Under the pieces are notes generated by a model that worked only from the letters and a program-made list of their open reading frames with translations, was not told the origin of the DNA and did not search any database. From positions 383,530 through 447,529 of the forward strand of contig MU004238.1 of the NCBI GenBank assembly GCA_010405405.1: a stretch of 64,000 nucleotides of DNA, written 5' to 3'. Both the position numbers and the translations under genes were made by a program. Origin of the DNA: Microthyrium microscopicum (lineage: Eukaryota). Position 1 is the stretch's first letter. Each line of letters opens with the position of its first letter. This document shows positions 33,900-54,434 of this stretch, piece after piece.

Positions 33900-34543
33900 G
33901 GCGGGCGACAGATCATGTAGGATAAGCCATGGTTTATTTACACGATTCCCAAAGTTTTGGGTTCGAAGCGCGATCTCGAGCCACGGAAGTTGCGCGCAGT
34001 CATGTGATCTGGCTCAGGTTGTGAGCTTTCATTGGCCAACTCCTCACGTCAGCCTCGTCCTCAGCCTTATGAAAACTCAACACCATGACTATCTCCAAAT
34101 CTTATCATGCAAATCATTCTACCGAGAACTCACAGTCACAAAGACAATAAATACGACTGTTGCAACTGAAATCCATGAAACTGTGTGATACTTCGCTATA
34201 TACTAGGTATTCAATGCTAAAAAGACCCAACAAAATAACATCAAATTTGTACTTATGGTACGTAAAAAGGAAAGAAGGTCCGCAAGCTCCGAGCAAGAAC
34301 CACCTCCAAGCCGATAGCAATATGCAAAAGCCGTAAGAACATTTAAAACAAGTCCCCATCATTCTGATCCAGTAGCAACCTGCAAAACCGGTGACAACAT
34401 TCAAAACAAGTACCAACCTCCAAAGCCAGTACCAATATGCGTAACAGGTAATGACCTACCAATCAGGTAACGATGTACAAAACAGATAATAATCGCAACC
34501 AAACCAAACTGTATGCAGCCCATCCATCCAACCACGTGAAAGC

Positions 34544-36174: not shown

Positions 36175-38750
36175 GTTGGAGAAAGAGATGGGTGAGGTGT
36201 TTGTGAAGGAGAAAGAGAGTGCAGATGTTATAGAGTGGGCGGTGAGGATGATATCAGATCTCAAAGAGATCCTAGGTGAATATGGTGAGAGGTGCAGGTC
36301 CTAGAAGATTGTTCGAGGGACGCGTCGATATGGAAGAAGCTGATTATAAGCCTTGGAAATAGAATCGAACAGGTATAATGAAATGTGAAAGAAAGTAGGA
36401 AGTGTGGTGATGGAGGTTCAGTGATGGCAATGGCAACAAACAGGTGTTGATAAAAGTCTGATGGAGTTTTGCAGTGGTCAAAAGCTGTCAGAACTGAGGG
36501 TGGGTGGAAGAGGAGGAAGAGGACTTGAAGAGTGAGCAGTGGACAAAAGATTATATAGGGTTCAAGCTCCAAGGCTGCGATATGGAGGTGGTGGTTGATC
36601 ACCGTCCAAGTGACAATGGGGAAGTGACTGAGAGGTGGCTACAAAATTCAGCACCAATAAATCCATTGATGAGGTGCCTCGAGTGACATTTTACAGAGGT
36701 TATGCCAGTTACTTCAAAACTGCTGCTACTGGCAGTGACCTTACACATATCATGTGGAGAGACTTTGCGCGAGCGGACTCAAATGTCCAGATTCAACCTC
36801 GAGACAGCACATCGCTTATTGAACCAGGAAAGAGAGGTCACGTCTCGAGTGACCAGGCCTTTGATCGCATTTAGAGGTGGAAAACCTCTATGCTGATTCT
36901 TCGGCGAGTCCCAAGACTCAAACCATACGCAATGGTTGCATGATATCGTCCTAGGAACCTGTTACAAATATATTTCTCATTGTACTGGAAGGTCATATAT
37001 CTCATAGATTTCTATCGCTCACGCGCATGCAGATAGCTTTAGTCCTGCCAACAGCTAAGTCGAAGCTTGACAACGATATATGTACCAGATATAGATTCAT
37101 GTTTGTAATCTCTGACACTCCTTGACAATTGGCGTTGTGTTAGGTACTTTATCAATTTTGTGTCAAGCCATAGCACTGAATGATTGCTCTTCCCATCTGA
37201 CAGATCCAGCTCTCCAGAGCCGTCTAGACCTAGCTTTTTTGCCCCCTCTGTCCAAACATTCCAGAGTCCGACAAGACACCACTATGGTCTGCACTTGAGC
37301 GTAAGGAGATGAGGAGGTGGCGCAAAAGGTGGCTGAGCTAAGTCATGGAGAGTATATACGCGAGCCTGTCAAGCCTGTCTATCTTCATGTTCAAGCAGTT
37401 TTACGTACTGGTTCTACCCAATCAGATAGCATCATTCATGTCACTCTGTCAGAAGTAATCGAGTGAGTAATTAGGAGAAGCAGGAATGGTTTCAAGAATA
37501 CCTTAGGTGGACTCCTTGCTCATATGAAGACTTCCTCTGATAATTCGTGTGAAAGCACATCAGATCTTGATCAAAACTATACCCAAGGGGTTGATGCTCT
37601 CAGAGGACTTGAATGGTTCTGATGACGCGATTTACCGTCTGGTTCCCTTAGGATGACTGTTAGGTAGAAATTCATATTGAAAGCATACAAATGGTTTTGA
37701 GATATGAATATTTTCGGACTTCTATGCCTGCCGGTACTCTGTGGTCTCCAAACCATTGCTGCCGATGATTCATGTTTGGGAGGTAAATTCAGGCAATACA
37801 CGTTATGCAAGGTAGAGTTGTCATATTCCCAGCCTCCCAGAAAATTGTCAGGTTTTCTTATCAGGGTGTATCTCTTGAAGAGCAATGATCTATGCTCATC
37901 ACATTTGGTTTATTGAAATTTTCCATGAAGTTTTTTCCCAAGTAGTTTGATCGGTTTGATGGGTCAATGCTCCAGTAAAGATATCATCCATTCAATCTCT
38001 CGATGTTTGGTACTCTAAAGACGATAGCATTAGAATAACGTGTCGCCTCCACACAATCAATCTCACTATTCCCCTTTTTGTCGTCGAAAGGAGTGAGTTT
38101 CTTGGATGGATAATGTCAGCGACTTCCAAATCCCCATAACTTGTCCTACATAGGATACGCTGCGGTTACCATCAAGTGCATCAAGAACTTGGGAGATCAT
38201 CGCAAACGATTGGATTCAAAGCAGGCACTCTTCAAGTGGTCTTCTAGCAGCCTTTGTAGTTGATGGGAAGATCCTTGTGAACGGCTCAAAATAGTGAGTC
38301 TCCCAAGCTCGAAGGCAAGAACGATCAATGTACGGCAAGAGCATATTTCTGTTTCAATCCAGCACGGACATTTTATCCAAACCCGGCAGGCACTCTCAAG
38401 ATCTGGAATTCGATGAGTTTTGGTGATGGAGGCTTTGAACTTTGGATGATCTCCTGAGCCATCATCACTCCCACGCATCTGGCTGATCTTCTCACCCTTA
38501 TCCATCTGCTCTTGATCAAGCTGTTCATACACCCTCACTACAAACAGCAGCATCCGTATCGAAATCTGAGTCTGAGGCCGCACGGTCAATCCACGAGACT
38601 GCTGCCTATAAAGCTTCCTTCTCCACCACTTCTACTCCACTTCTGCTTCAGCATCCTCTCATACTCTAGCACACCCATCACATCACATTGTAGCCATCAG
38701 ATCATATCAAGACCACCGCACAACATCCCACTAACTCACAATCATCAGCC

Positions 38751-41403
38751 ATGGGCAGAAACAAACATCAAATCATTCTTGACATCAGCCTCACAGACTG
38801 GAAGAATTACGAAACTTCACCGGATTACCATGAGGATTCCACGTCTGAGCTATTTCTGGGCCTCAACGAAGAAGGCCATGTCATTTCCAGCGTATCAGAA
38901 GCTCTCACTATGCACTGGCACTCAGCTTGCGGACCGGAGGATCAGCCCGGTCGAAATCGGGAGCAGCAAGAGCTTCAATATTCGGATGGAATGGAGAGCA
39001 TTTCTCTCCTAAATGGTAGGTTTTGCTCGAAATTCCACCTTCTGCCTTTCAACCGTGGCATTCAATGGCTCCAATCGCACTTGATGGCTACCATCGAGTG
39101 TTGGGGCGCCCATGTCATCCTGTGCAAATTTATACTAATGGCTTTAGGCCTTGAAGAAGAGGTTCATCGGTGGTACGAAGCACGGTCAAACGACCCGCAG
39201 GGCCTCCTCGACATCAAGATTTGGCCATTGACAGACTTTGAGCCAACAAAAGATGAATCGAAGTTCTTTGGCATCAAGATCAAAAACCGAAAATATTATG
39301 TTCCGGTCCAACAAATTGACGATTTCATCAAGATTCGTCACGATAGTCACTGGATTATTCCTCTCTGGTGGTTCAATCAGATGGTTCCTGAAGAGTTACA
39401 GAAGCCAAAGACAGTCAAAGTCGAGTCAAAATTCCCAATCATGCAGTTACCAGTCGAAGTTCGCCAAATGATCTGGCAATATACCATTTTCAACGAGCGC
39501 GGCGCTCAAGAAGGAACAGAAGTCAACCGTTTTAGTGGAAGAGTGCTCCATTACTACTTGTTCGACTACGCTAAGAGCCAACTTCAGGTAGTAAGTTGTC
39601 CCCTACAAAAGCAAAATCACCGATTTTTGGACTCCAAGGCAATCAATCCCAAACACTGGATGTCTCCCCAACGCATCTGATGGCTTCCGTAGATTGCAAT
39701 CTTAGATCGAGTACTATAGTACCCATCAGATGCGGTGGGGATTCATCGCGTTTTATGATTTGACCACAAAGACAAAGTCTTGCATATTGCTTGACGAAAT
39801 CCGAAAGTCCAGCACATCAGGTGGCCCCCATCGCATCAGAAGGCTACCATATGGTGCGATGGGACTTACCGCGAAGACGATCTATGCGTAATCTTATACT
39901 GACAAACTCAGGTTAAGGAGCTACCGATCTCGCTTCAAGGTAGTTCGTTCGCCAAACTCCTGAAATCCGAATTCAGAGAAGACTTTCTCAGCGCTGTGCT
40001 TCACAATGTGCACGTATACTTCACAGATTCCCGAGAATTCAATTTCTTTATTGGCCTTGTACCAATCAAGTACATCCGCCAAATCCGCCATCTGGATCTC
40101 GAAATGCTCGCTCCATGGCAATGGATTGATTTCTTCGGTGGTGGACTCCTCCATCCAACCTACAATACTGGCGCCGTCACATTACCGTTCATGAATCTTG
40201 CAACTATCACTCTCAACGTCCACAATATGGGCAAGGACGAGCCGGTCGAACGCCGAAATGGCATTCGTGGCAAAATTGTCAAATCCTCCATCCGAAATCA
40301 GGCAGGATACGATTTCGCTTACGATGCAGTCACACTTAGACAAAATAAGAAGTGGCTATACAATCCAGTGGCTCCTTGCATGACTCATGCGGTCGACTGG
40401 CTGCTCCAACTGATGTTCCCGTTTGTCAGTCATATCACCAAAATCACACTCACGGGCTGGGTTCGCACTCCTCAGAAGGAGCGTTTCCTCAATTTGTGTA
40501 GCCAGGTAAGAGTTCCCAGTTCCGAAAGCGTCAATTCATGGCAAAGTCTTATTTTACCAACACAATTAATGCCTCCCATCGCATTCGATAGCTATGGTCG
40601 AATGCAATGGCTTCCATGAAGTGTTTTATGTTTTCGCCCTGGAATGATGAAATGGTGTGCTTGGAGTTTTTTAGCTCTTACGGAAAGCTCAAACTAACAG
40701 TTTCTAGGTATGACTTCCCTTTGGAAACACGATATTCTTGACGATATCCGATAAGAACAGAATCCTTGATTTTCCCATCAAATGCGATGGTAGCCATCGA
40801 TTGCGATCAGAAGCGCATCATATGGTACCCTCGCACTTGATAATCCTCAACATATAAATCGCTCTGAATCTTATACTGACAACTTTCCAGGTTCCGACTC
40901 GCCATCCCGTGCATGAATTTGATCCAAACAGCCCTTGGGAGCTTAATCCCACCATTCAGCAGTGGGGAAACCACTTTGAGGCGATGTATAACCAGTACTA
41001 CAAGAAGGTGCGAGATCTGGAATATGTTCCCAAGGTCCGCAAGCATGCCCAACAAACATTCGCTCGGGCTGAGGCGATTGTCAATCGCCAGAAAGAGCTA
41101 TTTCTGAAGGCTGTTCATAAGCAGTACAGACTGGCTGGTGGATGCTACTGGGTTGATAAGGATTGGTTGGTCCACAAAAAAGCCGATGGAGGACCTCCGG
41201 GTGTTTGGGAGTACGATGAGGACCGCAACTGGTACCTCTGGAACATCAAAAATGGCTATTACCAGCAGCGTCCGGCTTGCAAATGCTCGCCTCCTTGTGG
41301 CGTAACCCCAGACTTCTACGATGATGGCGAAGAGTGGAAGCACCAACAGTGGTTAGAACAGGGTGAGAGAGAGTTGGAGGCATTCATTCGTGGTGAAGAC
41401 TGA
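38751..41403 (+). CDS. Uncharacterised F-box-like protein (~604 aa); exons 38751-39015, 39148-39590, 39912-40505, 40891-41403
   Basis: GT-AG introns with branch sites join three ORFs into 605 codons including the stop; F-box-like FPIMQLPVEVRQMIWQY; IRHLDL motif; C-terminal CKCSPPC. Confidence 0.75.
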
Positions 41404-41694
41404 AAAAAATGGTGGAAAATCGATTGACCCATCCTAAATTGTTTTGACAATCAGATAGAAAAAATTGGTATTTCTCAATCAAATTGTAAAACTGCGTCTT
41501 CAAAGCAATTCAAAAATACATAGCGAGCCTCCACCGTACTCTATGGATGCCATTAATGCGGTGGCAGACATCAAATGCGATAAGAAAATCTCGTGAAGCC
41601 GAACATGTGTGTGTTTTTGCTTTTGGGTGAGACTCCAAGGAAAACGTGTCATATAGGTGCCATCGATTGCGGTGGTAGCCATCGAAGCAGATGA
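39071..41694. repeat. Cluster of quasi-palindromic CCATC-N6-GATGG arrays
   Basis: Copies at 39071-39106, 39665-39683 with 39723-39741, 39827-39864, 40575-40610, 40774-40832, 41531-41583 and 41660-41694. Confidence 0.85.
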
Positions 41695-42126
41695 AAGAGT
41701 GCCATTATTGACCTCATTTCCTACATTATTTATTTCAGCCTTGTAGACACAAATTCAGCCTTGCAGGAGCTGCACGGACGCAATTCATCCCGCAGCCGTT
41801 GGTTCTTCCTCGATTTTGACAGGGATGGGAAAGCGCCACTGCCAAGCATCTCCAACTGCTGTTAGTCTCTTCTACTTTTGCTCGTTTGCTCTTTCGGCGA
41901 CGACATAGTACTACCAAGAGATCTCGTTTGTCTGGACGTACTAGTTGTTTGTCGCTGTTTGCGTATTTCAAGCTTCAACAACAGGCGAGATGCATCCTCG
42001 TCCTTGCGACCCTCTCTTCTCGTTTATCCCCCAAGCATGATTTGATCTCAACATCCGCCGGTAAGTCCTTTCCAAGAACTCGCGTATTGACAATGATTCC
42101 TTAAGGTACTAACAATATGAATAGAC

Positions 42127-44664
42127 ATGGCCTCTTCATCGGCCCCATCCTCGCTTACGCGCTATCGTCCCATCGTCCTTACAATCTTCGGTTTTGCCGT
42201 TGGCTACTCCATCTATTACGTCTACACCTCGAGTACACAATCAAAGCCTTCCGGATTACATCGTAGTAATGCTGTACATCGTAGGCGACGAGCCGCAACC
42301 AATACTCCCGAGAATGGCGCTGTAACATCTCGATCCAGAGATAATCCAGCAAATGATAATTCGGTGGAGACCGCGGATATACCTGACGGCACCGAGACCG
42401 TGGCAGAAACCGAAGCCATTCAGACAAATTCTCAGGATGGTTCAGGACTTAAGGCGTTACTCTACTACATTGCTGAAGATCAAAGTCGTCAGAATGCCTA
42501 CATTCACAGAGGAGTCATGTGCAATTCATGTTTCATGAAACCAATACGAGGGATAAGATGGCGCTGCGCCAACTGCGCCGATTATGACTTGTGCTCAGAT
42601 TGCGAGGCGTCAAATATGCACCCAAAAACACACATATTCTACAAAGTCAAAATCCCCGCACCATTTCTGGGAAACCCACGACAAACACAGGCGGTGGTCT
42701 ACCCCGGTAAGCCTGCGAAAATGCCACGCAGCCTACCAACGAATCTATTTCGAAGATTTGTCGACGAGACAAAGTTTGAGAAGGAAGAAATTGAGGCTCT
42801 CTATGACCAATTCACCTGCCTGGCAAACGCAAACTGGACATCAGATCCCAATGGAATCAATTACGCCATCGACCGGACTGCTTTTGACACTGCATTCATT
42901 CCTCTAACTTCAATCAATGCGCCTCAGCCAAATTTGCTTTATGATCGCATTTTCTCGTTCTACGACTCCAATGGCGATGGCCTCATTGGCTTCGAAGAAC
43001 TTTTGAAAGGGCTGGCACATATTCAAGACAAAAATCATGATCAAGCAGCTCGAAGACGCCACATCTTTAATGGCTTTGATGTTGATAGTGATGGCTACAT
43101 ATCGCGAAAAGATGTATTGCGGCTATTTCGTGCTTATTATGCAATCCAAAAGGACATAACGCATGACCTACTCGCGGTACAAGATGAGGAGTATGAGATC
43201 AAGAATGTCCAGCAATTCATATTTTCTGGACAACCATTGAGTGCCGCTTTTACAGAGTCAGCACCGGGTGTTCAGACTACATTTCCTACGGATACAAAAC
43301 AACCGAATAGCTTTGGGGACACCCGCGATTCTACCAATCCGATACACGTGGATTCGACGGATGAAGGACCTAGAGATGAAATTGTGTCTTTGCTTCCAGG
43401 AGAAGAGTTGTGGAATCGACAGCAACAGAATCCGCCTGGAACCTTCATCTTTCCTGCTTCTAGACCTTTAATCGACGAGCCGTGGATGTCAGCTGAAGAG
43501 GATGCGCAGGTTACAGCAAGGCTGCAAGCCAGCGCGATGCGAGACCGATTCCGCCGAAGAGAGTTTTACACCGACGAAGAGGAAGGATTTTTGCTAGAAG
43601 ACCCGGATAAATACTCCTCTTCTCGACAGTCCTCCAACCAGCATCAGCAAGCCCCTACTCAGCATACAGAGCATGCTCAACGAACACCTCTGGGTTTCCT
43701 GCGCTCTGCCCCGTCGTGGAATGTCGCAGAGAATCCTGCTATTGGAATTGAGGCTACGCCAGCTCCATCGGCTGCAAGAAAATCGCGTGAGCAAGTCCTG
43801 CATCGCGATGGCTACGAGGTTCCCATCCCAGATGCGGAAATCGGCAAAGAAATTCTGTATCAGGTGGTTCAGCAAGGTCTCAACGAATTGCTCGACCCTC
43901 TTTTCAAGGAGAAGGAGGACTTGGCTCTTCTGGTCGAAGAAACCGCTATGGAGCGGCGGAGGTGGAAAAGAGAAATCAGACAATTTGTGAAAGCGCAAAA
44001 ACGAGAGAAAGCTGAGGAGAAGAGAGAAGAGGACGAAAACAAGCTGAAGAACGGTAATGGCTCAGCCTTCCATTCGCAACAGTCAGCAGACGCCAATGTT
44101 CTCGAGGACGAAGAAACCGATATCTCATCTTCGGTTTCTTCAGCTGATCATACTGAATCAGAAGATGAAGGAAACGTTGAGCCAATGGGCTGGAATAAAC
44201 ATCCTGGGGGCACCAAGTGGAAAGAAGACTCCAGGCCCAAAGGGCGGGACGATACAGACTTGGTGTTGACGTCTGTCGCTACTGATCGTCAGGTACGATT
44301 GGATCCAACCATGCCACAGTTTCGACCAAATTCAGACAAAGATGTCGATCAGCACTCGGAGTACGTCAGACTTAAATCTATCCATGCCTGGGAAGAAAAC
44401 AGAATACCCACACAAGAGGGTCCAAACGGCTCGGTCAATGGTGGTCCTATCAGAAGCGGTCTATCGGCTGCCAATATAGCTAAGATTGAACCAACCAAAG
44501 CTGAGCTAAAGCAATATGCGATGCTTAACGAAGCCGAACGAAGCATCAAGGAACAAGGAGGGAAAGGGAGATTAAGCTTTCAAGAATTCAAAGCTTTGAT
44601 GCATGGAGAAGAAGGCCGGCGCCTCGCTTTTGTGGATCAATGGTTTGAGCTGGGAAGTTTTTGA
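42127..44664 (+). CDS. ZZ-type zinc finger and EF-hand protein with N-terminal membrane anchor (845 aa)
   Basis: Hydrophobic segment near aa 16-33; HRGVMCNSC..PIRGIRWRCANCADYDLCSDCE..HPKTH; EF-hands DSNGDGLIGFEE and DVDSDGYISRKD; likely 5'UTR intron at 42061-42124. Confidence 0.92.
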   Translation: MASSSAPSSLTRYRPIVLTIFGFAVGYSIYYVYTSSTQSKPSGLHRSNAVHRRRRAATNTPENGAVTSRSRDNPANDNSVETADIPDGTETVAETEAIQTNSQDGSGLKALLYYIAEDQSRQNAYIHRGVMCNSCFMKPIRGIRWRCANCADYDLCSDCEASNMHPKTHIFYKVKIPAPFLGNPRQTQAVVYPGKPAKMPRSLPTNLFRRFVDETKFEKEEIEALYDQFTCLANANWTSDPNGINYAIDRTAFDTAFIPLTSINAPQPNLLYDRIFSFYDSNGDGLIGFEELLKGLAHIQDKNHDQAARRRHIFNGFDVDSDGYISRKDVLRLFRAYYAIQKDITHDLLAVQDEEYEIKNVQQFIFSGQPLSAAFTESAPGVQTTFPTDTKQPNSFGDTRDSTNPIHVDSTDEGPRDEIVSLLPGEELWNRQQQNPPGTFIFPASRPLIDEPWMSAEEDAQVTARLQASAMRDRFRRREFYTDEEEGFLLEDPDKYSSSRQSSNQHQQAPTQHTEHAQRTPLGFLRSAPSWNVAENPAIGIEATPAPSAARKSREQVLHRDGYEVPIPDAEIGKEILYQVVQQGLNELLDPLFKEKEDLALLVEETAMERRRWKREIRQFVKAQKREKAEEKREEDENKLKNGNGSAFHSQQSADANVLEDEETDISSSVSSADHTESEDEGNVEPMGWNKHPGGTKWKEDSRPKGRDDTDLVLTSVATDRQVRLDPTMPQFRPNSDKDVDQHSEYVRLKSIHAWEENRIPTQEGPNGSVNGGPIRSGLSAANIAKIEPTKAELKQYAMLNEAERSIKEQGGKGRLSFQEFKALMHGEEGRRLAFVDQWFELGSF

Positions 44665-46448
44665 ATTGCACATACATACAACCTCGACGATTGTACGTTT
44701 ACCAATCGCTAATAGCTCACATAGATACCCGGGCCGTACTTGAGCGGTATTTGGCTACCTCTTGCTTCTTCTGAAAATGCATAGATAGCCGGTTTGAGAC
44801 ATTTACATTTAGATCCCGAAAGACTCGTGGATGCAAGCATCAGTAATTAGCCGTTAATGCCAGATTATTATCATTTCAATCTCTAAGCGCTCGGTTCAAG
44901 AGATCGATTCTTCCTTACTCTTTGCAGATCACATCTCATGGGCTGGATACTACGCACGAGTGTGGCCGAAGATTGAATGGAGCATTGGGGTGATGCAACA
45001 CAATCCAAGAAAAACACAACCGTCTTCAAACTAATTTTCGTCACTCTATCCCAGCCCGCTGCCCACTAGCAAATAACAGGCCGGGAAATAAAATAATAAC
45101 GAACAGACCACCGCTTGGCGTTGAGCAAAGTGCAGCATTCATTCTTGTACATTGTAGGATTGATTATCATTTGGCCCACACGCCGAGGATTCAGTACGTA
45201 CGGATTTACACTTAATGTTCTTCTAGGTTGTCTTGATAACGGTTACCAGTTGCCGCCTGGCCGCAATGCATATACTATCTCAAGGATGGTGCACAAGGAA
45301 TCAATATACAGTAAACAGGGGCCCATGTCAGCCTGGTCGATCGCTCGCAACTGTATATGTCCAGGTGGTGGCCAAAGCAACAGCCTACAAACAAGTAAGT
45401 ACCTCTCAATATTAATCGAACGCGACGCATTCTTTGATTTGTTTCGCTTGATGAGGAAATGCCAGTACCGGTAGATCCGGACACGTTCAAAGCGTTCAAC
45501 AGTTTAATGACGTCGCCCAATTCGGCCTCAGCAGGCAATTTGAGCCTCCTCTTGAGGCTACAATGGATAGTAACCCTTCTACAGTGATTTTCAAATTCAG
45601 ATGGATCTAGGAGAGGTTTAGTATTGCAAGCAATAATCTAAATTCACGAGCAGGATGGAGTTGATAACGCGATAGCAGCAGAATACGGCTATCACTGGAA
45701 TAATGGCACAATGTCTATACCAGGCATCTTGATATCTAAACTCTGCTAGCTTCACGAGTCGGAAAAGATCTTCTTGGCCTATGTTCCATTGCTATTCTAG
45801 AAAAACTGACGTAGTAACCAGGAACCTCAGGGCAACGATTGGAGCTATCATTTTCCCAGACTTCTCCATCAGTCCGCTCCGCAGTAGTCTCTGATATCTG
45901 GAGAAGACTAGTACGGAGACCACGAAGACCCTGCCTCGAACTCGCTCTAACAGAGGTTTTTGCGCTTGAGCGGCTCGTCGCTCAGGGGATACATCAGATT
46001 GGAAAAACCTGTTTGGTCAAATTCCGCGGCTCCCAAGTCGAATCCAATATACGATTTGATCCTCGATATCTGCTTGATACTATTGGTGCGAGGTCGATGC
46101 GCCTCACGTGCTGTTTTAAGTTTCTCCAGATGTTTCCAACCGTGCATAGGACAAAAACGCAGGGAAATGTTGACAGGAATCAAGGGCTTGCCCCTGTTCA
46201 CGACAGGCCTTGTATATGCCGTCCACGGCCAGCACTGTAGCAATTTAATGAACTGATAATTCACGTCATCATGCTCAGACCCAATCTCGGAGGAACAATG
46301 TATAAAAGACAAGAGTCGCTTCTGGATGTACTTCTTTCTCTTTCATCACAACACTACGACTCAACGAACCAATTCAACGATTTCAAGCCTTCTTTTCTAA
46401 CATTAATACCAAACACCCTCGTTTAACAACAAAACAACCTATATCAAA

Positions 46449-47213
46449 ATGAAGTACTCCGCTGTTACCGTTGCTGCCTTTGCCGGCTCTGCCATGGCCG
46501 CTGGTGGCGCTGATGCCATCAACTCCGTCCTTAACGACATCAACACCTCCGTCAAGTCCTTCGACTCTGCCGTCAAGGGATACTCCGGTGGAGATGCCCA
46601 GGCTCTCCTCCAGGCCTCCTCCAAGATCCAGTCCATCACCGCCGATGGTGCTGCCAAGATCGCTGCCGGCTCCGACCTCACCCTCAACGACGCCGTCTCC
46701 ATCACCACCAACGTCCAGGGTCTCCAGGGAACTCTCGACTCTGCTCTCTCCGACCTCGAGGGCGCTGGCCCAGCTCTAGCCAAGGCTGGAAAGTGCTCAG
46801 AGATCACCTCCCAGCTCTCTGCCCAAGCTGATGCCGCCAAGAAGCTCCAGGACGCCGTCACCCTCAAGGCTCCTACCGAGACCAAGTCCATTGCTCAACA
46901 GCTCGGTGGAAAGATTGGTTCTTCCATTGCCTCAACCCAAGGCAAATTCAAGCAGATCTGCGCTGGTGCCTCATCCGCCCCATCCAGCGGATCTTCATCC
47001 GGTAGCTCCGACCACGCTGGCATGCCCGGTATGGCTGGCAGCTCCAGCTCCGGCTCATCCAGCTCCAGCTCAAGCAGCACTGGCTCCAAGACCAAGTCTG
47101 GCAAGCACTCTGCTTCCTCCACAGTCCCCAAGCCAGCCCAATACACCGGCGCTGCCTCCACAATGACTGCCCCAGCACTCATGGCTCTCGTCGCTGCTGT
47201 CTTCGCTCTATAA
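46449..47213 (+). CDS. HsbA/Mp1-like GPI-anchored cell-wall protein (254 aa)
   Basis: Signal peptide, Ala-rich helical domain, Ser/Gly-rich linker, YTGAA followed by a hydrophobic GPI signal; strong C-ending codon bias; TATAAAA at ~46300. Confidence 0.88.
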   Translation: MKYSAVTVAAFAGSAMAAGGADAINSVLNDINTSVKSFDSAVKGYSGGDAQALLQASSKIQSITADGAAKIAAGSDLTLNDAVSITTNVQGLQGTLDSALSDLEGAGPALAKAGKCSEITSQLSAQADAAKKLQDAVTLKAPTETKSIAQQLGGKIGSSIASTQGKFKQICAGASSAPSSGSSSGSSDHAGMPGMAGSSSSGSSSSSSSSTGSKTKSGKHSASSTVPKPAQYTGAASTMTAPALMALVAAVFAL

Positions 47214-49395
47214 ATTACCCAAACCTTGACAATCATCAAGGGGCAATTGTACGATTATTAGAAGGTGAAAATCACACACCAGAAAGCATTGTTTTTCATT
47301 TGGTATTTTTGGGATTATTGTTGAGTGGATGTGGAAAATAAACATAGTACCGACAAGATTATCCATCGGACGACTTGGTTCGTTCCGACCGAGAGGGAAA
47401 TAGTTTTTCTTTTTACCAGCCGTTTGTTGTCTATTCTGCGACGTTGTAGTCAATACCGCATATTGCGGGTAGTGTAATACAGATTTTTCCTTTTAGTCGA
47501 ATAAAGCATTTCGCAACAGAATCATTTCCAAGGTCTTTTCGTGACTGAGCCGCAATTGCAAAACTTTGGTATTGAGCACAGTTTCTCCAGCATATTCGTA
47601 CGTAATCCTTCTCCATCTCGCATTGACTGTAATTTCATATTAATATCGAGGCAAGATATTCTTAGATGACCGTTTCATTTGCCATCCCAACTCGCCGAGA
47701 TTGAAAGCACAGCTTGTTCATGAACTGTCGTTAGATTTATAGTGCCCTACTCTGTATGAACCCTGGCCCATGCTGCTTCTTTGGCCATTTATTGGACTTA
47801 CTGTCTCACTAACACATGGGTCTACCCGTGAGCCTGTCCATATTCAGCGTTACTTATAGTCAGGGGTAAACATTGGGGGCCAGTGACTTGAGTAACACCG
47901 TGCCCACAGTGCTAGAGTTGCAGAGTCGCAGGTTTCATGGCGGCACAGGTATTCCTCACGGTGTTAATATCATGACATAACGGTGCTTTGATGATCCACT
48001 ACGGACACTAAGGCGCTTCATTTATATTTTGATGGTCCTATTTGATACCGAGCGTGCGGTGATATGATCACCACTTGGGCAGCCTCGAGGATGTTGCCCA
48101 ATGCCGCGGCGAAGTTCGCGAAGCTCGTCCGGCCTTGATGGGCTTAGCTTTGCGGACTGGAGGTAGTATCTGGGAATACGCCAGGCAATAATATGTAATA
48201 TGGTACAAGAGTCTGCTGTTTCCGAAAGCTCGGTGTTACTACAGAGCCGCACGAGGATCGGTATCTGCTCGTTTACATCGGATTCGAAGAAGCCCTTCTT
48301 ATCGAAGGATTCTGCGCTTTGTGATGTTAAAGAATTTCCTCGAATCTCATAATTTGCGGCTCAGTGTGGACATTTCGCCGACTGGCATTGTTGTCCGGAT
48401 AAGTTTGATACGAATACAAAACCTGTTATTACCAGTTAAGAGTATAAAGACGTATGAAAAAATCTTATATTGCTCATTGAGAAAGGACTTGACGCAAATA
48501 GTAAGAAATGTTTGCCTGCTATCTCCTTAAGCGTCAACGTAGATTAGTACCTTCCAGCAACATTGTCATTGCCTTCGATGTCAATCAAGGACTACATCTA
48601 TCACGAATGCTATATCTGCTACCCTGTGTATAGAAAACTTACCACATTATCGGACATAAGTGAAAATTTGAGCTTTGTTTGCTCGAAAAGCGTTCTTGTT
48701 GTGAAATATTATTCAGGAGAAGAGTTCCAATTGCGGTCTTCATCACTAGGTAGATGAGAGGCACCAAGAGGCCTCAAGAGTACCGTTGCTTGCCCTGGAC
48801 GAAACAATTTAGACTGCTTTGCTACATGAGGCTACAATGAGAATCCTAGCAATCGGTGAAAGTGTAAATATCCAGCGACATATTCCTAGAAATACTTTGC
48901 ATACCAATCATGTTGAGGGTTTCTCACCGTCCGTTTCGCTGATTCTAGGCGACTATGGACGTGCCCTGGATACTGTCACCATCGGTGGAGGTATCGATGA
49001 CCGGAGCACCGGGGCCGTTCATATCACGTTGCCGAGCTTTACTCCTAAGGAGGGCGGCGGTCCCTGCTTCAATGTTCTTGCGTATACCACCTATTTCATA
49101 GAGTATTCTAGCTGTTTAAGGATTCTCCAGGCGTGATTATAACTATAGCAAGGCTGTCAGAGCCATTGTGGAGCTTTCAAGGGAAGGAGTAAATGCTTTT
49201 GTGCGATGATCTGTTAGTGTTGAAGGAGTGTGAGAGAGGATACGGAGGATAAAATCTCTCGAGACGCAAAGAGCAGACATATATATAAGTACTGTTTGAG
49301 TTCTGCTGCCTACACTAGTAGATAAAAAGATGGATGAAATGTTTGGTAAGCATCGTGGTTTCCAGCCTTGCCCTCAGCCTTATACGCACCCAACC

Positions 49396-49415
49396 ACAAC
49401 AACAACAACAACAAC
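49396..49415. repeat. (CAA)n microsatellite
   Basis: Direct reading, about 6 units. Confidence 0.8.
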
Positions 49416-50161
49416 CACCTCTCCACACACGCAAAACAGCACCAAAAACAATAAAATCTATATTCAAAAATAGCAAAAAGCTAACCACACACCATTACGT
49501 GTCTGTGGCTCCGAAAACTAGTTTCCTAATTTTACATTTATGTTAGCTGTCACTCAGATTCGAACCGGGGTTTCTAGGATTCAGTGTGGCTCAAGAATCT
49601 TTTATGAGGAGGTCTCAAAGTTACGTATCCGGCTAGCATATGTCACATAATATGTGAGGAATTATGCTATACTTTCATTTACGACCTAAACGCTACATAT
49701 CAGTCATTTTACAACGAATTGAATATACACAGGTATAAGCCTTTCTAAAAATATGTCAATGTCTAATTTTCAACACTGTTTAGCGGTCTTTGAAATAGAA
49801 CGCTCTCTCTCTCATTTCAATAATAATTTCAAGACGCTTTTCGAATCTCTCCATTCTCTCACTATTAAACCACCCTGCTATCTCTTTGCTTTTTATGCAT
49901 TCACATCTTCGGCTATGCAAGTATATAAGCGAGCTGGACAAATCGACCCCAAACAGTCCGCTTGCAGACCGAGAGTTCCTCTACATCTCAGAAGTGCTCC
50001 CTTAAATACTCGCTGCCATATTCCAGAAAAATTCGTAGATCCAGTGTTCCCGATTCCCCTCAGCAATCCAAACATCAAACCACCAATTTCATATTCAGCG
50101 CCTATCATCGCGCCCCTCTCATACTTCACCCCGTGCCTTTTATGACACCCCTGTTTGCACA

Positions 50162-50975
50162 ATGCCACTTGAAGAATGCACATGTACCTCAGTCGATAGT
50201 CCACTTTCAATCGCAGTAGCCGCGCTTGATATCATAACCTTCGCCATTGCAGTCACAGGCCTCATTCTAGCCGGAATTGCAATATTTCGATCATATAGAT
50301 CCGCACACGAAGACGCAAACCGCTTTGAAGCAGTTTACAACGCTGCTAATGATGAAGTCAAGCTTTTGCGTTGGGCATATGGACTTGTTCCCGAACTTTT
50401 CGAACCTCGTACTCAAACAGGAGGTTTACCGGAAGGAGCACGAGGAGCGGGTAAGAGAACACAATGAGTTCAGCTTCATATCATATTGGATAGAGCTGAT
50501 TCTTTATTTCCCAGACGAACCCATAAGCACACTAGCCTCCGAGCAACACGGAGTCCACCTCCACGAACTAGATCGCGTCCATACAGCCGGCGGCACAGGT
50601 GGCCGTGAAGTTCGGAAACGACAGTTGGAGAAAGCAGCGACAGATCTTATAGTAATCCTGGATAATGCAGCCATAGATGTAAATACCGAGAAGAATAAGC
50701 TGAGAGACAGTGGATTTAGTTGGCTGAGGAAGAAAGATGGTCTTTTGAATATGATGAAGGAAAGAAGTGCGCTTACGCCGAGTGTGGTTCTGATGAGGTT
50801 GGAATTGATGGGACTGTAAGTTTATTCTTTACGAGTTAAGTAAGATGATATGGCAAAGTGATGTGCTAACGAGGGGCCAAGGCGTATTGAGTCCATTTGT
50901 GAGAATCTGGAGAATATCTCGGATAGGTTGGGTGTACACTTACAGGAAGAAGAAGAAGAAGAAGTAATTGGATGA
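50162..50975 (+). CDS. Small protein (~227 aa) resembling fungal HeLo-like N-terminal domains; introns 50451-50514 and 50816-50881
   Basis: Splice sites restore one frame; DSPLSIA followed by a hydrophobic helix; WLRKKDGLLNMMKER..LTPSVVLMRL; acidic tail. The family call is tentative. Confidence 0.7.
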
Positions 50976-51724
50976 AGGAGACGATGCTGGCTGTGGAAGA
51001 TGTCAGAAGATTCCAACTCAAATGCTGATATATCAGGAGGTTACATGTAAGGTCATTAGAATAATATCATCCTTGACTGGCTCCGTTGTTGATACATGTA
51101 ATTTGCCCATCGCACAAATACTGATATAATTCAATGTCTGATATACTAGAAATATGACCAGCTTTCGAAATCATATATGAGCTTGTGAGCTTCAACCAGA
51201 AGTGATAAATACATTCAATACTAACAATAGATTATTTGCAGACAGACTCCCTAATCTTGTCGTTATGGTTCGTATGCTATGGATCAATTCATATAAATCC
51301 ACGTCGACAAAGCATTCACAAAATGTGTTTTCGTCACAATCTTAACAGCAACCAAAGAATCTCACTTAAAGAACAATATATAGAGGATAAAGAATAACAC
51401 CACCCATGATGTCAGGCTCTGAAGACATATAAGCGTTGAAGAGACACAAAGACTTGGAAGTTGAACTAGAGTCTGGGCACGCAGAAAGTGTAACAAAGGC
51501 TCCACTTTGAGGGGTCCCAAGGCTGGGGAAATGGGTCTGGACCGTAGATTTTCAGCTTCTAGTTGAAGATTGTCGTATCTTAGCTAGGATTGGCATGAGG
51601 ATACCTGGTGTTCGGTAATAGAAATGGACTGGAGGAGAGAGGGGACTGGTCAACAGAAGAAATGGGCGCTCACATGAGCTTACTTGGCTGCCACCCGCCA
51701 CGTTCTACATCGCTTGCTCAAGTC

Positions 51725-51795
51725 GCGTCGAATACGATGGGCATTAGAGAATGTGCTATTTATCAAGTGCTATGGCAGACATCGCACTTGATGGG
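51725..51795. repeat. Further CCATC-N6-GATGG array upstream of PPZ1
   Basis: gcgtc-gaatac-gatgg, then ttatc-aagtgc-tatgg cag acatc-gcactt-gatgg. Confidence 0.7.
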
Positions 51796-52770
51796 AAGGT
51801 GGGAGATATTTCTATGTTGCCTCTGGAAGGACAAGATTGATGGAGTTGGGGAGAGCGGGGACAACTAGAAAAGTACGCTAGTCCTTGTTTGTCGGGAGCC
51901 TTGAACCTCCAAGAAGAAAGCGTGAGACTTGTTGGGAACTTTGGAACCTTCTTTCATCACCAAACTTCCGCCACCATCTTTGATCTCGACTCTTCTTCTG
52001 GGTCACTACCAACACCATTGTCCCCGCTAAATCGTCTCAGTATCCACCATCGTCAACTCTTCAGCTCTCTCCCTCAACAGGCATCTTCTATTCCGTCCTT
52101 CCCTTTCCTCAACTTCAACATCCGCCCTGTTGCTGTTTACCTTCCTTGTGATCCGCTTCACTTGTGCCTTCTTCTTATTCTTGACGACTCATCAAGAAGC
52201 TTGGATCTGGTCTGGGCCCAAACACTCTACTCGCACCTTTTCCTCCGATACCAGCTAAACCCAACATTGCGCGTCATTCTACGACTTTCTCTCCTTCGCT
52301 CTTCCCCATCTGATTCTACCTTTGCTTCCATCGGCATTGTCAACGCCCTCTTGGCCTTCGCCTTGTGTCCCCTGTACTCAATCAACAACATTTGCCTGCC
52401 CCTGTTGCAAAACTTGCGCTCGCTATTCCTCTTTAGCAATACCCAACACCTCGTCAGTTTCAACAACTCAGGTACAGCGGTGATCACAAGTGCTTCAGTA
52501 ACTACTCTTCTCGCCGATTTTGGCTCCTAAACATTCACATTGATCCTTGCCGGGGTGACTTCCTCCGGCCAAAAGCCTAACAACGGCGTCTACTGAGCCG
52601 CTCTTTCTCTTCCTTTCTCGATTGTACCGCCCTCCTTAACATCGTCATATCGTCCGCGTGATACACCTTGGATCAAACGTCATACCAAAGCTTTATTCTT
52701 TTCGCGCAACAATCTCAATACTCTGTCTTGTTCACCATTACAACAATAATTGAAGCGGTAGTCGGTGGAT

Positions 52771-54434
52771 ATGGGCAATACGCCTTCTAAAGCCAAAGGC
52801 ACAGACGGAAATGGCTCAGGTCCCGGCCTCGAATCTCTACCCTCATTCAGCAAGTCCGAGACGAAGGAGTCATCACGATCAATTCGCCAATCACTGCGCT
52901 CAAAGATACCTGGATCAAAGGCCGAAAGTCCTCGATCCTCAAATGTTGGACTCGGTGGGACGGCTGCGACGGGGGAGAAATCCGATGCAGCTTCCATCAA
53001 ATCCTCAATGAGCGTGAGATCTAATGGCACTCGTTCTCATCGTGGCTCAACTTCCGAATCGGCGCGCCCATCCATGGACCAGGTGTCGCCAGAATCTACA
53101 CAATCCGAAGACCTTCCTCCTCCTTCTCCAACGCAGCATGCAATTGGCACTACACATGAAAAAGTTGATGCAGCTAGACGAACGGGCGAAGTAGATCACG
53201 TTTCTGAAGCCCCGCCATCTGGTCTTCATCCGGCTCCATCAGCTCAGCCAAAAGAATCAATCTTGATCAAAAGAGATTTTCCAATTCCGCGACTACCCGA
53301 TGAGACGCCATCCGATAGCACAGCCATGGAGACGAGTGCCTTGAAGCCATCAGATCTCGACGACATGATAACCAGATTATTGGACGCCGCTTATGCTGGA
53401 AAAGTCACCAAAACAGTCTGTCTCAAGAACGCAGAGATACAGGCAGTATGCCACGCAGTCCGCGAAATCTTCCTCTCCCAACCCGCGCTCTTGGAACTCT
53501 CTCCTCCCGTTAAAGTAGTTGGCGATGTCCACGGCCAATACACCGACTTGATCCGCATGTTTGAAATGTGTGGGTTTCCCCCCAACGCAAATTATCTCTT
53601 CCTTGGCGACTACGTAGACCGAGGGAAACAGTCTTTGGAAACAATCCTGCTCCTCTTGTGCTACAAACTGAAGTACCCCGAAAACTTTTTCCTTCTCCGC
53701 GGAAACCACGAATGCGCAAATGTCACTAGAGTCTATGGCTTTTACGATGAATGCAAACGAAGATGTAATATCAAGATCTGGAAGACATTTATTGATACTT
53801 TCAACACGCTTCCCATCGCTGCGATTGTTGCCGGTAAAATCTTTTGCGTCCACGGTGGATTATCACCCTCTCTCAGTCACATGGACGACATCCGGCAAAT
53901 CGTCCGACCTACTGATGTCCCTGACTATGGTCTTTTGAATGATTTGCTATGGAGTGATCCGGCAGATATGGAAAATGATTGGGAAGCCAATGAACGAGGC
54001 GTGAGTTATTGCTTTGGAAAGAAGGTCATCATGGAGTTTCTGCAACGGCATGACTTTGATCTTGTTTGTCGAGCGCATATGGTCGTTGAGGATGGGTATG
54101 AATTCTTTGATGACAGAATACTCGTAACGGTCTTCTCTGCTCCAAATGTAAGCTCTCCTTTGCCCCGGTGCTGGTATTGTAGATTGCTAACTCTCATAGT
54201 ATTGCGGTGAATTCGACAATTGGGGCGCCGTCATGTCCGTCTCTGCAGAGCTGCTGTGCAGTTTTGAACTGCTTAAACCTTTGGACTCGAGTGCGCTCAA
54301 GAGCCATATAAAGAAGGCAAAGAGCAAGCGTGCGAATATGCTCAACAGTCCGGTATGTCATACTTCCTCCACTGTTACTATTCAGCACTAACCTTTTTAT
54401 CTAGCCGGCTTCTCAATTTCCACAATCGTTCTAA
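52771..54434 (+). CDS. PPZ1: Ser/Thr protein phosphatase Z; introns 54148-54199 and 54353-54404
   Basis: MGNTPSK myristoylation motif, Ser-rich N-terminal extension, [34 protein letters not shown]. Confidence 0.95.

Follow-up and report, generated by a model that had tools for sequence, protein, structure and literature searches.

Periodic hairpin-forming units in the long introns of an orphan gene of Microthyrium microscopicum: candidate cores of a degenerate introner-like element family

The 64,000-nt stretch of contig MU004238.1 of the Dothideomycete Microthyrium microscopicum analysed here (positions 383,530 to 447,529 of the contig; hereafter the window, with its first letter as position 1) is composed of an AT-rich block with 18-27% GC and dense low-complexity repeats (bases 1-26000) and a gene-rich part of fungal nuclear DNA with 43-51% GC (26000-64000). 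Within the latter, a gene at 38751-41403, in the following referred to as the host gene, possesses long introns that harbour a short, hairpin-forming unit. An initial annotation, made from the sequence alone, had described these units as a dispersed family of quasi-palindromic arrays. The feature is real, and it is more organised than was then recognised: intron-to-intron alignment identifies the units as the 60-75-nt core of larger intron modules, a core that consists of three or four units separated by 3-nt linkers. The host gene, its introns and the units within them are arranged as follows.

38751-41403, + strand: host gene, with exons 38751-39015, 39148-39587 (or 39590), 39912-40505 and 40891-41403; about 604-605 aa
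39016-39147, + strand: intron 1, 132 nt, one module; donor GTAGGT, branch point TACTAAT, acceptor AG
39053, 39072 and 39091, + strand: units of intron 1, at 19-nt intervals; 39072-39087 and 39091-39106 form a paired stem on either side of the linker CTA
39591-39911, + strand: intron 2, 321 nt (donor 39591) or 324 nt (donor 39588), with modules 2a and 2b
39665-39683 with 39723-39741, + strand: module 2a, 19-bp stem with one mismatch
39809, 39828 and 39847, + strand: units of module 2b, within intron 2
40506-40707, + strand: intron 3a, 202 nt, one module; GTAAGA...CTAAC...TAG; inverted repeat I4
About 40557, then 40576, 40595 and 40614, + strand: units of intron 3a; core-profile match 40563-40621, E 1.5e-10 (training copy)
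40708-40890, + strand: intron 3b, 183 nt, one module; GTATGA...CTGAC...CAG
40775, 40794, about 40813, and 40828, + strand: units of intron 3b, in the order forward-forward-reverse-reverse
39890-39905 (intron 2b) and again 40867-40882 (intron 3b), + strand: 16-nt branch-point block AATCTTATACTGACAA, exact direct repeat D10

The 16-nt unit reads CCATC-N3-TGCGATGG or its complement. When up to two mismatches are allowed, the pattern CCATCNNNTGCGATGG finds 17 matches in the whole window, corresponding to 14 distinct sites, against a mean of 0.32 in 100 dinucleotide-preserving shuffles, the largest shuffled count being 3 and none reaching 17. Twelve of the 14 sites lie within 38197-41694, the other two at 46633 and 51779. 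Similarly, the unit-linker-unit junction GATGGCTACCATC, again with up to two mismatches, occurs seven times versus 0.84 expected, a number attained in none of the 100 shuffles. The spacing is equally regular: at a threshold of at least 10 of the 13 fixed positions, 33 sites were found in 26-64 kb, and of the ten pairs separated by no more than 40 nt, six have a spacing of exactly 19 nt, while a cut at 9 of 13 positions gives nine pairs at 19 nt, four at 38 nt and at most two at every other spacing. Chance as the source of the units is ruled out by the two shuffle counts together with this spacing, and the 19-bp period proposed initially is borne out within the window. The arrays are short, with two to four units each in mixed orientation, and Tandem Repeats Finder reported no 19-nt array over 38-52 kb. 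Adjacent units pair into hairpins, as had been claimed, with stems of 16-19 bp, and the two examples quoted at the time are accurate: 39827-39863 reads as given, and the 19-bp stem of module 2a does contain a single mismatch.

Two occurrences resemble the units superficially. The site at 46633-48, a look-alike with perfect CCATC-N6-GATGG ends and two mismatches to the full unit, lies isolated in an HsbA-family coding region and is probably due to chance. A tandem repeat at 34338-34435 (5.1 copies, 64% matches) also has a 19-nt period; its unit is unrelated, without CCATC/GATGG ends, and the agreement in period is probably a coincidence.

Within the host gene the units are concentrated in the introns, where 841 nt contain 11 sites at the 10-of-13 level, versus one site in 1812 nt of exon. 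The initial observation that units avoid exons holds as a preference and fails as an absolute rule, given a lone unit with two mismatches inside exon 3 (40113-40128). The introns themselves are 132, 321-324 and 385 nt long, i.e. two to six times the usual length, compared with 50-75 nt for eight plausible introns elsewhere in the window. These control introns come from a heuristic scan which delivered 20 candidates in or outside the host gene, eight of them short and plausible and one confirmed by an RNA-like contig; none of the eight contains a unit match above 9 of 13 positions.

The exon-intron structure is supported by several lines of evidence. An open frame across 38751-41403 is kept by only one family of GT..AG choices, and canonical donor, branch-point and acceptor sequences are found in all four modules. 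The only database protein that matches, P0001 (577 aa, labelled as a hypothetical protein of M. microscopicum), is identical to the host-gene exons apart from donor choice; introns 1 and 2 (the latter with donor 39591) are removed in it, and its intron 3 begins at 40425. Contigs of run X5, presumed to be RNA, span all four exons, and one of them joins 40505 directly to 40891, with all 385 nt removed and GT..AG ends; in the adjacent gene, X5 likewise shows 64 nt cleanly skipped between GT..AG ends. By covering the exons and joining 40505 to 40891, these contigs demonstrate expression of the host gene and splicing of intron 3 in the modelled form (40506-40890), and the double module 3a+3b, at least, is removed from RNA. 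The start of intron 3 in P0001 (40425) differs from this junction, and the P0001 model loses 27 residues; either alternative splicing or a mis-annotated donor accounts for the discrepancy between 40425 and 40506. Intron 1 is in frame and free of stops, with the open reading frame 38751-39680 reading through it, and its retention would add 44 residues without truncation. Intron 2 holds the inverted repeats I1 and I15, and an unspliced reading of it encounters a stop at 39680.

The initial annotation had reported copies in all three introns of the gene. Units do occur in each, while the third intron has to be described differently, namely as two abutting introns (40506-40707 and 40708-40890). 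At the junction 40707|40708 (...TTTCTAG|GTATGA) two complete introns meet at AG|GT with a zero-length exon between them. A similar acceptor-donor arrangement is found in recursive splicing in animals. The junction likewise resembles the abutting-donor complex introns of Lipomyces (PMC7138796) in that an acceptor is followed immediately by a donor, so that removal of the 385 nt might proceed either at once or in two stages. Unlike in those introns and in recursive sites, each half here is a complete, paralogous intron module.

The modules are related to one another beyond the possession of units. The four intron modules and two modules situated directly downstream of the gene align on one core, for which a profile was built from seven modules, so that E-values for these seven are those of training copies; that of intron 1, for example, matches at 39058-39117 with E 1.7e-10. 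Introns 1, 2b and 3a carry the elements of the core as reverse, reverse, CTA, forward, forward, and intron 3b carries them as forward, TAG, forward, reverse, reverse. Outside the core, the branch-point block AATCTTATACTGACAA has two exact copies in the window and no others, located at the same distance from the acceptor in introns 2b and 3b, and intron 1 carries most of it (AAT.TTATACT.A); it is absent from the 3' ends of the eight short control introns. Introns 2b and 3b further share a collinear 5' block (39790-39804 versus 40737-40751, 14 of 15 positions matching; D11). As these blocks beyond the core, the branch-point block included, are shared, at least three of the four modules appear to descend from a common intron ancestor, splice signals included, and by the same sequence comparison the modules are mutually paralogous. 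No duplication of the exons flanking these introns was found. Between the collinear blocks intron 3b is longer than 2b by about one 19-nt step, which suggests gain or loss of a unit by slippage.

In total, five modules lie in the host-gene introns, all in sense orientation, and three or four copies are located outside the coding sequence:

41531-41583, + strand: downstream copy A, core only; units at 41531, about 41550, and 41568; core-profile match 41537-41590, E 5.6e-9 (training copy)
41628-41735, + strand: downstream copy B, intron-like; opens with GTGAGA and closes with ...TTTCAG after a pyrimidine run; contains units at 41660 and 41679 as well as TTATTGAC
51725-51794, no strand assigned: distant copy; units at 51725, 51760 and 51779; 12-bp perfect stem within a longer hairpin; fold z -3.35
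38170-38270, no strand assigned: possible degenerate upstream copy, weak; one unit with two mismatches at 38197-38212; fold z +0.35

The two downstream copies noted initially correspond to the modules at 41531-41583 and 41628-41735. Copy B (core match 41647-41702, E 2.1e-9, training copy) has GACTCCAAGG (D17) and a 31-nt stretch with 71% identity (D7) in common with module 2a. The depth of X5 is zero beyond 41474, with no contig over 41475-41915. The copy reported 10 kb away is likewise genuine: 51761-51796 is the only independent core-profile match in the window (E 0.004, better on the - strand), and the copy at 51725-51794 is intergenic, between a gene end near 50980 and the phosphatase start codon at 52772. 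By contrast, the upstream copy claimed at 38168-38212 lacks significance in the core-profile search (E above 1), while its stretch does align weakly (71 nt, 63%) with the 51.7-kb copy, at 51728-51798. Outside the window, core stretches of 30-42 nt find matches of 80% or more on no fewer than four further contigs of the source genome, and the overhangs of these matches show further units with other linkers. The family of hairpin cores is therefore dispersed rather than regional, as both the distant copy and the matches on other contigs demonstrate.

Searches further afield were negative. In the 26-kb AT-rich block no decayed copies were detected, a pattern tolerant of C-to-T and G-to-A changes recovering only two known junctions. 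A metagenome scan with a junction pattern of 20 specified bases yielded three loci, all single units in contigs of 55-71% GC and at about chance level. A peptide search for other genes mistranslating a copy, based on the read-through translation of intron 1, scored none of two candidates.

Compared with shuffled sequences, the sense-strand fold is stable in intron 2 (z -4.1) and in introns 3 and 3b (both -2.7), less so in 3a (-1.9), and not significantly so in intron 1 (-1.3). The antisense strand folds equally well (intron 2: -4.1 on the + strand, -4.5 on the - strand). A consensus fold of four modules comprises 14 pairs, 4 of the 14 still being paired after changes on both sides. When the partners of hairpin arms were permuted, the observed complementarity was reached by 33 of 5040 permutations for seven hairpins and by 4 of 120 for the five hairpins of one type, or 6 of 120 when the three variable positions alone were considered. 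The co-variation between arms of the N6 core noticed initially is thus real, and modest. Mismatches in the stems (9 G-U versus 5 A-C in 112 positions) are too few to separate constraint at the RNA level from constraint at the DNA level. A search of Rfam with 37500-42500 gave no matches at E <=1 on either strand, and on minimum-energy folds the distance from donor to branch point is 4-25 steps in the long introns and 2-27 in the short controls, a measure too noisy to be informative. Apart from the hairpin itself, the earlier suggestion of a structured RNA family finds no support in the absence of Rfam matches, in the like folding of both strands, or in the 9 to 5 ratio of mismatches.

A published description of the 16-nt unit was not found in the literature on introner-like elements, on introns of M. 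microscopicum or on short palindromic repeats. Several known systems are nevertheless comparable. Repetitive extragenic palindromic (REP) sequences and bacterial interspersed mosaic elements (BIMEs) are short imperfect palindromes of bacteria, which occur as head-to-head clusters in transcribed non-coding DNA. Unlike these, the family described here resides in a eukaryotic nuclear genome, in spliceosomal introns with their own splice signals, and no RAYT-type transposase is at issue. Foldback elements possess arms made of short repeated units. The present family differs from them, and from introners of the type of miniature inverted-repeat transposable elements (MITEs), in that neither terminal inverted repeats nor target-site duplications could be delimited and a parent transposon was not observed. 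The initial designation as a REP/MITE-like micro-element was apt with regard to a dispersed, hairpin-forming micro-repeat, which is enriched, periodic and present on other contigs, but it overlooked the whole intron modules, and the closest known kind are the introner-like elements (ILEs) of Dothideomycete fungi, not bacterial REP.

ILEs of Dothideomycete fungi were reportedly described by van der Burgt and colleagues in 2012. The modules of the host gene come from the same fungal class and, like ILEs, are mutually paralogous spliceosomal introns of about twice the usual length or more, with stable predicted folds and compensatory changes in the stems. Indeed, Dothideomycete ILEs have been characterised as longer than regular introns, stably folded, subject to compensatory changes and decaying fast to ordinary introns (Collemare et al. 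2013, PMC3609843). Unlike ILEs, which are near-identical and occupy tens to hundreds of unrelated genes, the modules described here agree at 70-91% over 23-47 nt and are confined to one gene and a few loci. Copies outside genes are a further difference; this comparison with ILEs is one of descriptions, not of sequences. Cores built of 16-nt units at a 19-nt period are not mentioned in the ILE literature consulted. Similar introns within one gene and unduplicated flanking exons also characterise same-gene intron duplications (SGD) and low-copy introns (LCI; Collemare et al. 2013, PMC3609843), which are reported to be of ordinary length and folding energy, whereas those of the host gene are long and folded and have their core on other contigs as well. 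With algal MITE-type introners (Huff et al. 2016, as summarised in PMC9860276) the family has in common that short, non-autonomous, hairpin-prone DNA can end up as intron.

In the literature on introner-like elements with palindromes, the Hypoxylaceae were the only case found. Their sister (stw)introns (Fekete et al. 2021, PMC8469720), the closest symmetric introns so far on record, resemble the M. microscopicum modules in having proliferated, in their strong internal symmetry with possible formation of double-stranded RNA, and in having neither target-site duplications nor an Rfam family; there, the symmetry is not needed for splicing. The Hypoxylaceae introns, which belong to Sordariomycetes, possess 45-55-nt terminal inverted repeats around a TTTCTAGAAA palindrome, and many are nested at the donor ([D1,2]), whereas the modules of M. 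microscopicum carry a periodic palindrome in their interior, and their complex intron consists of two units placed end to end without nesting.

Tentatively, we lean towards the explanation that the units are the cores of a degenerate, lineage-specific family of introner-like elements with a foldback core. Each module, about 110-200 nt in length, would comprise its own donor, branch point and acceptor and, in its middle, a foldback made of three or four quasi-palindromic 16-nt units at 19-nt spacing. Such modules may have proliferated in the form of introns, through duplication inside one gene or through spread in the manner of introners. Their points of insertion would have been AG|G(T) sites, among them the edge of a copy already present, whence the abutting pair 3a|3b and the double intron 2 would have arisen. 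The modules could persist thanks to their removal by splicing and to a length too small for repeat-induced point mutation to act on, and the hairpin would fold the extra length away and thereby bring donor and branch point near each other. Complementarity of the arms might be upheld by selection on the fold or by template switching within the quasi-palindromes; the number of units would shift in 19-nt steps, and the flanks would decay fast, leaving only the self-correcting core recognisable as a repeat.

Several observations weigh against this explanation. For introns 1 and 2, removal is supported by splice signals, reading frame and P0001, with no RNA-like contig bridging them. The family is carried by one gene in the window, and the similarity between its modules is short and mostly confined to the core, far from the near-identity of ILEs. 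Moreover, no orthologues of the host gene, against which the gain of its introns could be dated, are present among 1.84 billion representative proteins. Two systematic scans for introners score M. microscopicum as zero (PMC9860276, Supplementary Table 4; PMC12130899, supplementary file 6). The former scan is conservative, however, since Dothistroma septosporum, a known carrier, also scored zero in it. Published fungal introners are described as strongly biased towards genes and devoid of terminal repeats (PMC9860276, section 8), in contrast to the copies found here outside introns at 41531-41583, 41628-41735, 51725-51794 and possibly 38170-38270. Elsewhere in the genome, one locus shows the core directly bordered by unrelated sequence, with no visible donor. 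Finally, the architecture of the core differs among modules, and once its core is subtracted, intron 1 measures about 57 nt, an ordinary length that would fit insertion into a pre-existing intron.

Many of the same facts favour an alternative that we regard as possible, if somewhat doubtful, namely a MITE-like or foldback hairpin cassette of about 40-75 nt that was moved or copied at the DNA level into any non-coding DNA. The introns would then be older and merely lengthened, and the homology of 2b and 3b would reflect a separate, local intron duplication. An independently moving or rearranging cassette accounts more simply for the varying order and number of units, and it would agree with copies outside introns and outside the transcript, with cores flanked by unrelated sequence on other contigs, with the ordinary length of a core-less intron 1 and with the empty introner scans. 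The equal stability of folds on both strands, with G-U pairs not significantly in excess of A-C, also points to a palindrome at the DNA level. Nevertheless, such a cassette has no terminal inverted repeats, target-site duplications or ends that can be defined, and its palindrome is internal; homology between copies fades without a sharp edge, and the sole flanking repeats are the AG|GT splice contexts, of which six letters fit on either side of intron 3. The distribution is hard to reconcile with random insertion, with five modules in 841 nt of intron against about four in some 15 kb of intergenic DNA and none in about eight other introns. The branch-point blocks common to three of the four modules likewise speak against it, as does the 26-kb AT-rich block, where neither copies decayed through repeat-induced point mutation nor a larger parent element came to light.

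A bolder version of the introner-like explanation would see here an intron-generating element of novel construction, still active or active until recently, i.e. a 19-nt quasi-palindromic foldback with its own splice signals which inserts at AG|GT, the edges of its own copies included, piles up as end-to-end 'zero-exon' introns and may even have helped to assemble a new gene; we consider this unlikely. Less probable again is a local, non-mobile quasi-palindromic minisatellite, whose 19-nt unit, through slippage and template switching, would undergo expansion, inversion and self-correction on the spot, so that the cluster would be a regional accident brought about by small local duplications. 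Seven of the eight modules in the window indeed lie within 2.7 kb, the otherwise collinear introns 2b and 3b differ by about one 19-nt step, and arm covariation of this kind would require no selection, but the copy 10 kb off at 51725-51794 and the core matches on at least four other contigs contradict a purely local origin. A functional element, whose hairpins would be retained to regulate splicing, to give rise to small RNAs or to offer a dimeric protein an array of binding sites, is very improbable: the arms do co-vary and the symmetric CCATC...GATGG ends resemble a dimer binding site, yet Rfam has no match at E <=1 in 37500-42500, the strands show no asymmetry, the gene hosting the units is an orphan and rates of decay vary from copy to copy, and stems of 16-19 bp with 3-nt loops are, to our knowledge, short for small-RNA precursors.

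The origin of new spliceosomal introns is an old open question, and Dothideomycete fungi are among the few places where self-copying introns have been caught. If the units are indeed cores of introner-like elements, the locus would add a family that is conserved in its periodic foldback and not in the whole intron, as well as a case of two complete introns abutting without an exon, the pattern expected from landing on old splice junctions. The zero score of the species in automated scans would point to a blind spot for older, decayed introner families, and, if the element has in fact been active recently, the gain of introns by such elements in fungi would be badly under-counted once their flanks have decayed. 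Should a mobile hairpin cassette be the correct explanation instead, the family would be an ordinary small repeat, with its interest limited to the tolerance of 130-385-nt introns by a fungus with short introns.

The host gene itself is a lineage-specific orphan: among the 1.84 billion representatives only two proteins were recovered at E <=0.001, itself and one 230-aa protein of 28% identity, and Pfam gives only sub-threshold 2EXR/DUF7730 matches for its protein. At the start of exon 1, 96 nt (38759-38854) have a counterpart on another contig of the genome, with 10 differences, and X5 depth at this exon-1-like locus is 748 versus about 3 at the host gene. The orphan gene may have been assembled in part from a duplicated piece of a highly expressed gene.

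Neighbouring genes in the window encode a UvrD-type helicase, a ZZ/EF-hand protein, an HsbA protein, a PP1-type phosphatase, an aldehyde dehydrogenase and a NOP9-like protein, and the protein clusters nearest to the genes of the window are ascomycete. The 26-kb AT-rich block at 1-26000, with its short AT-rich tandem repeats, looks like the remains of transposons degraded by repeat-induced point mutation.

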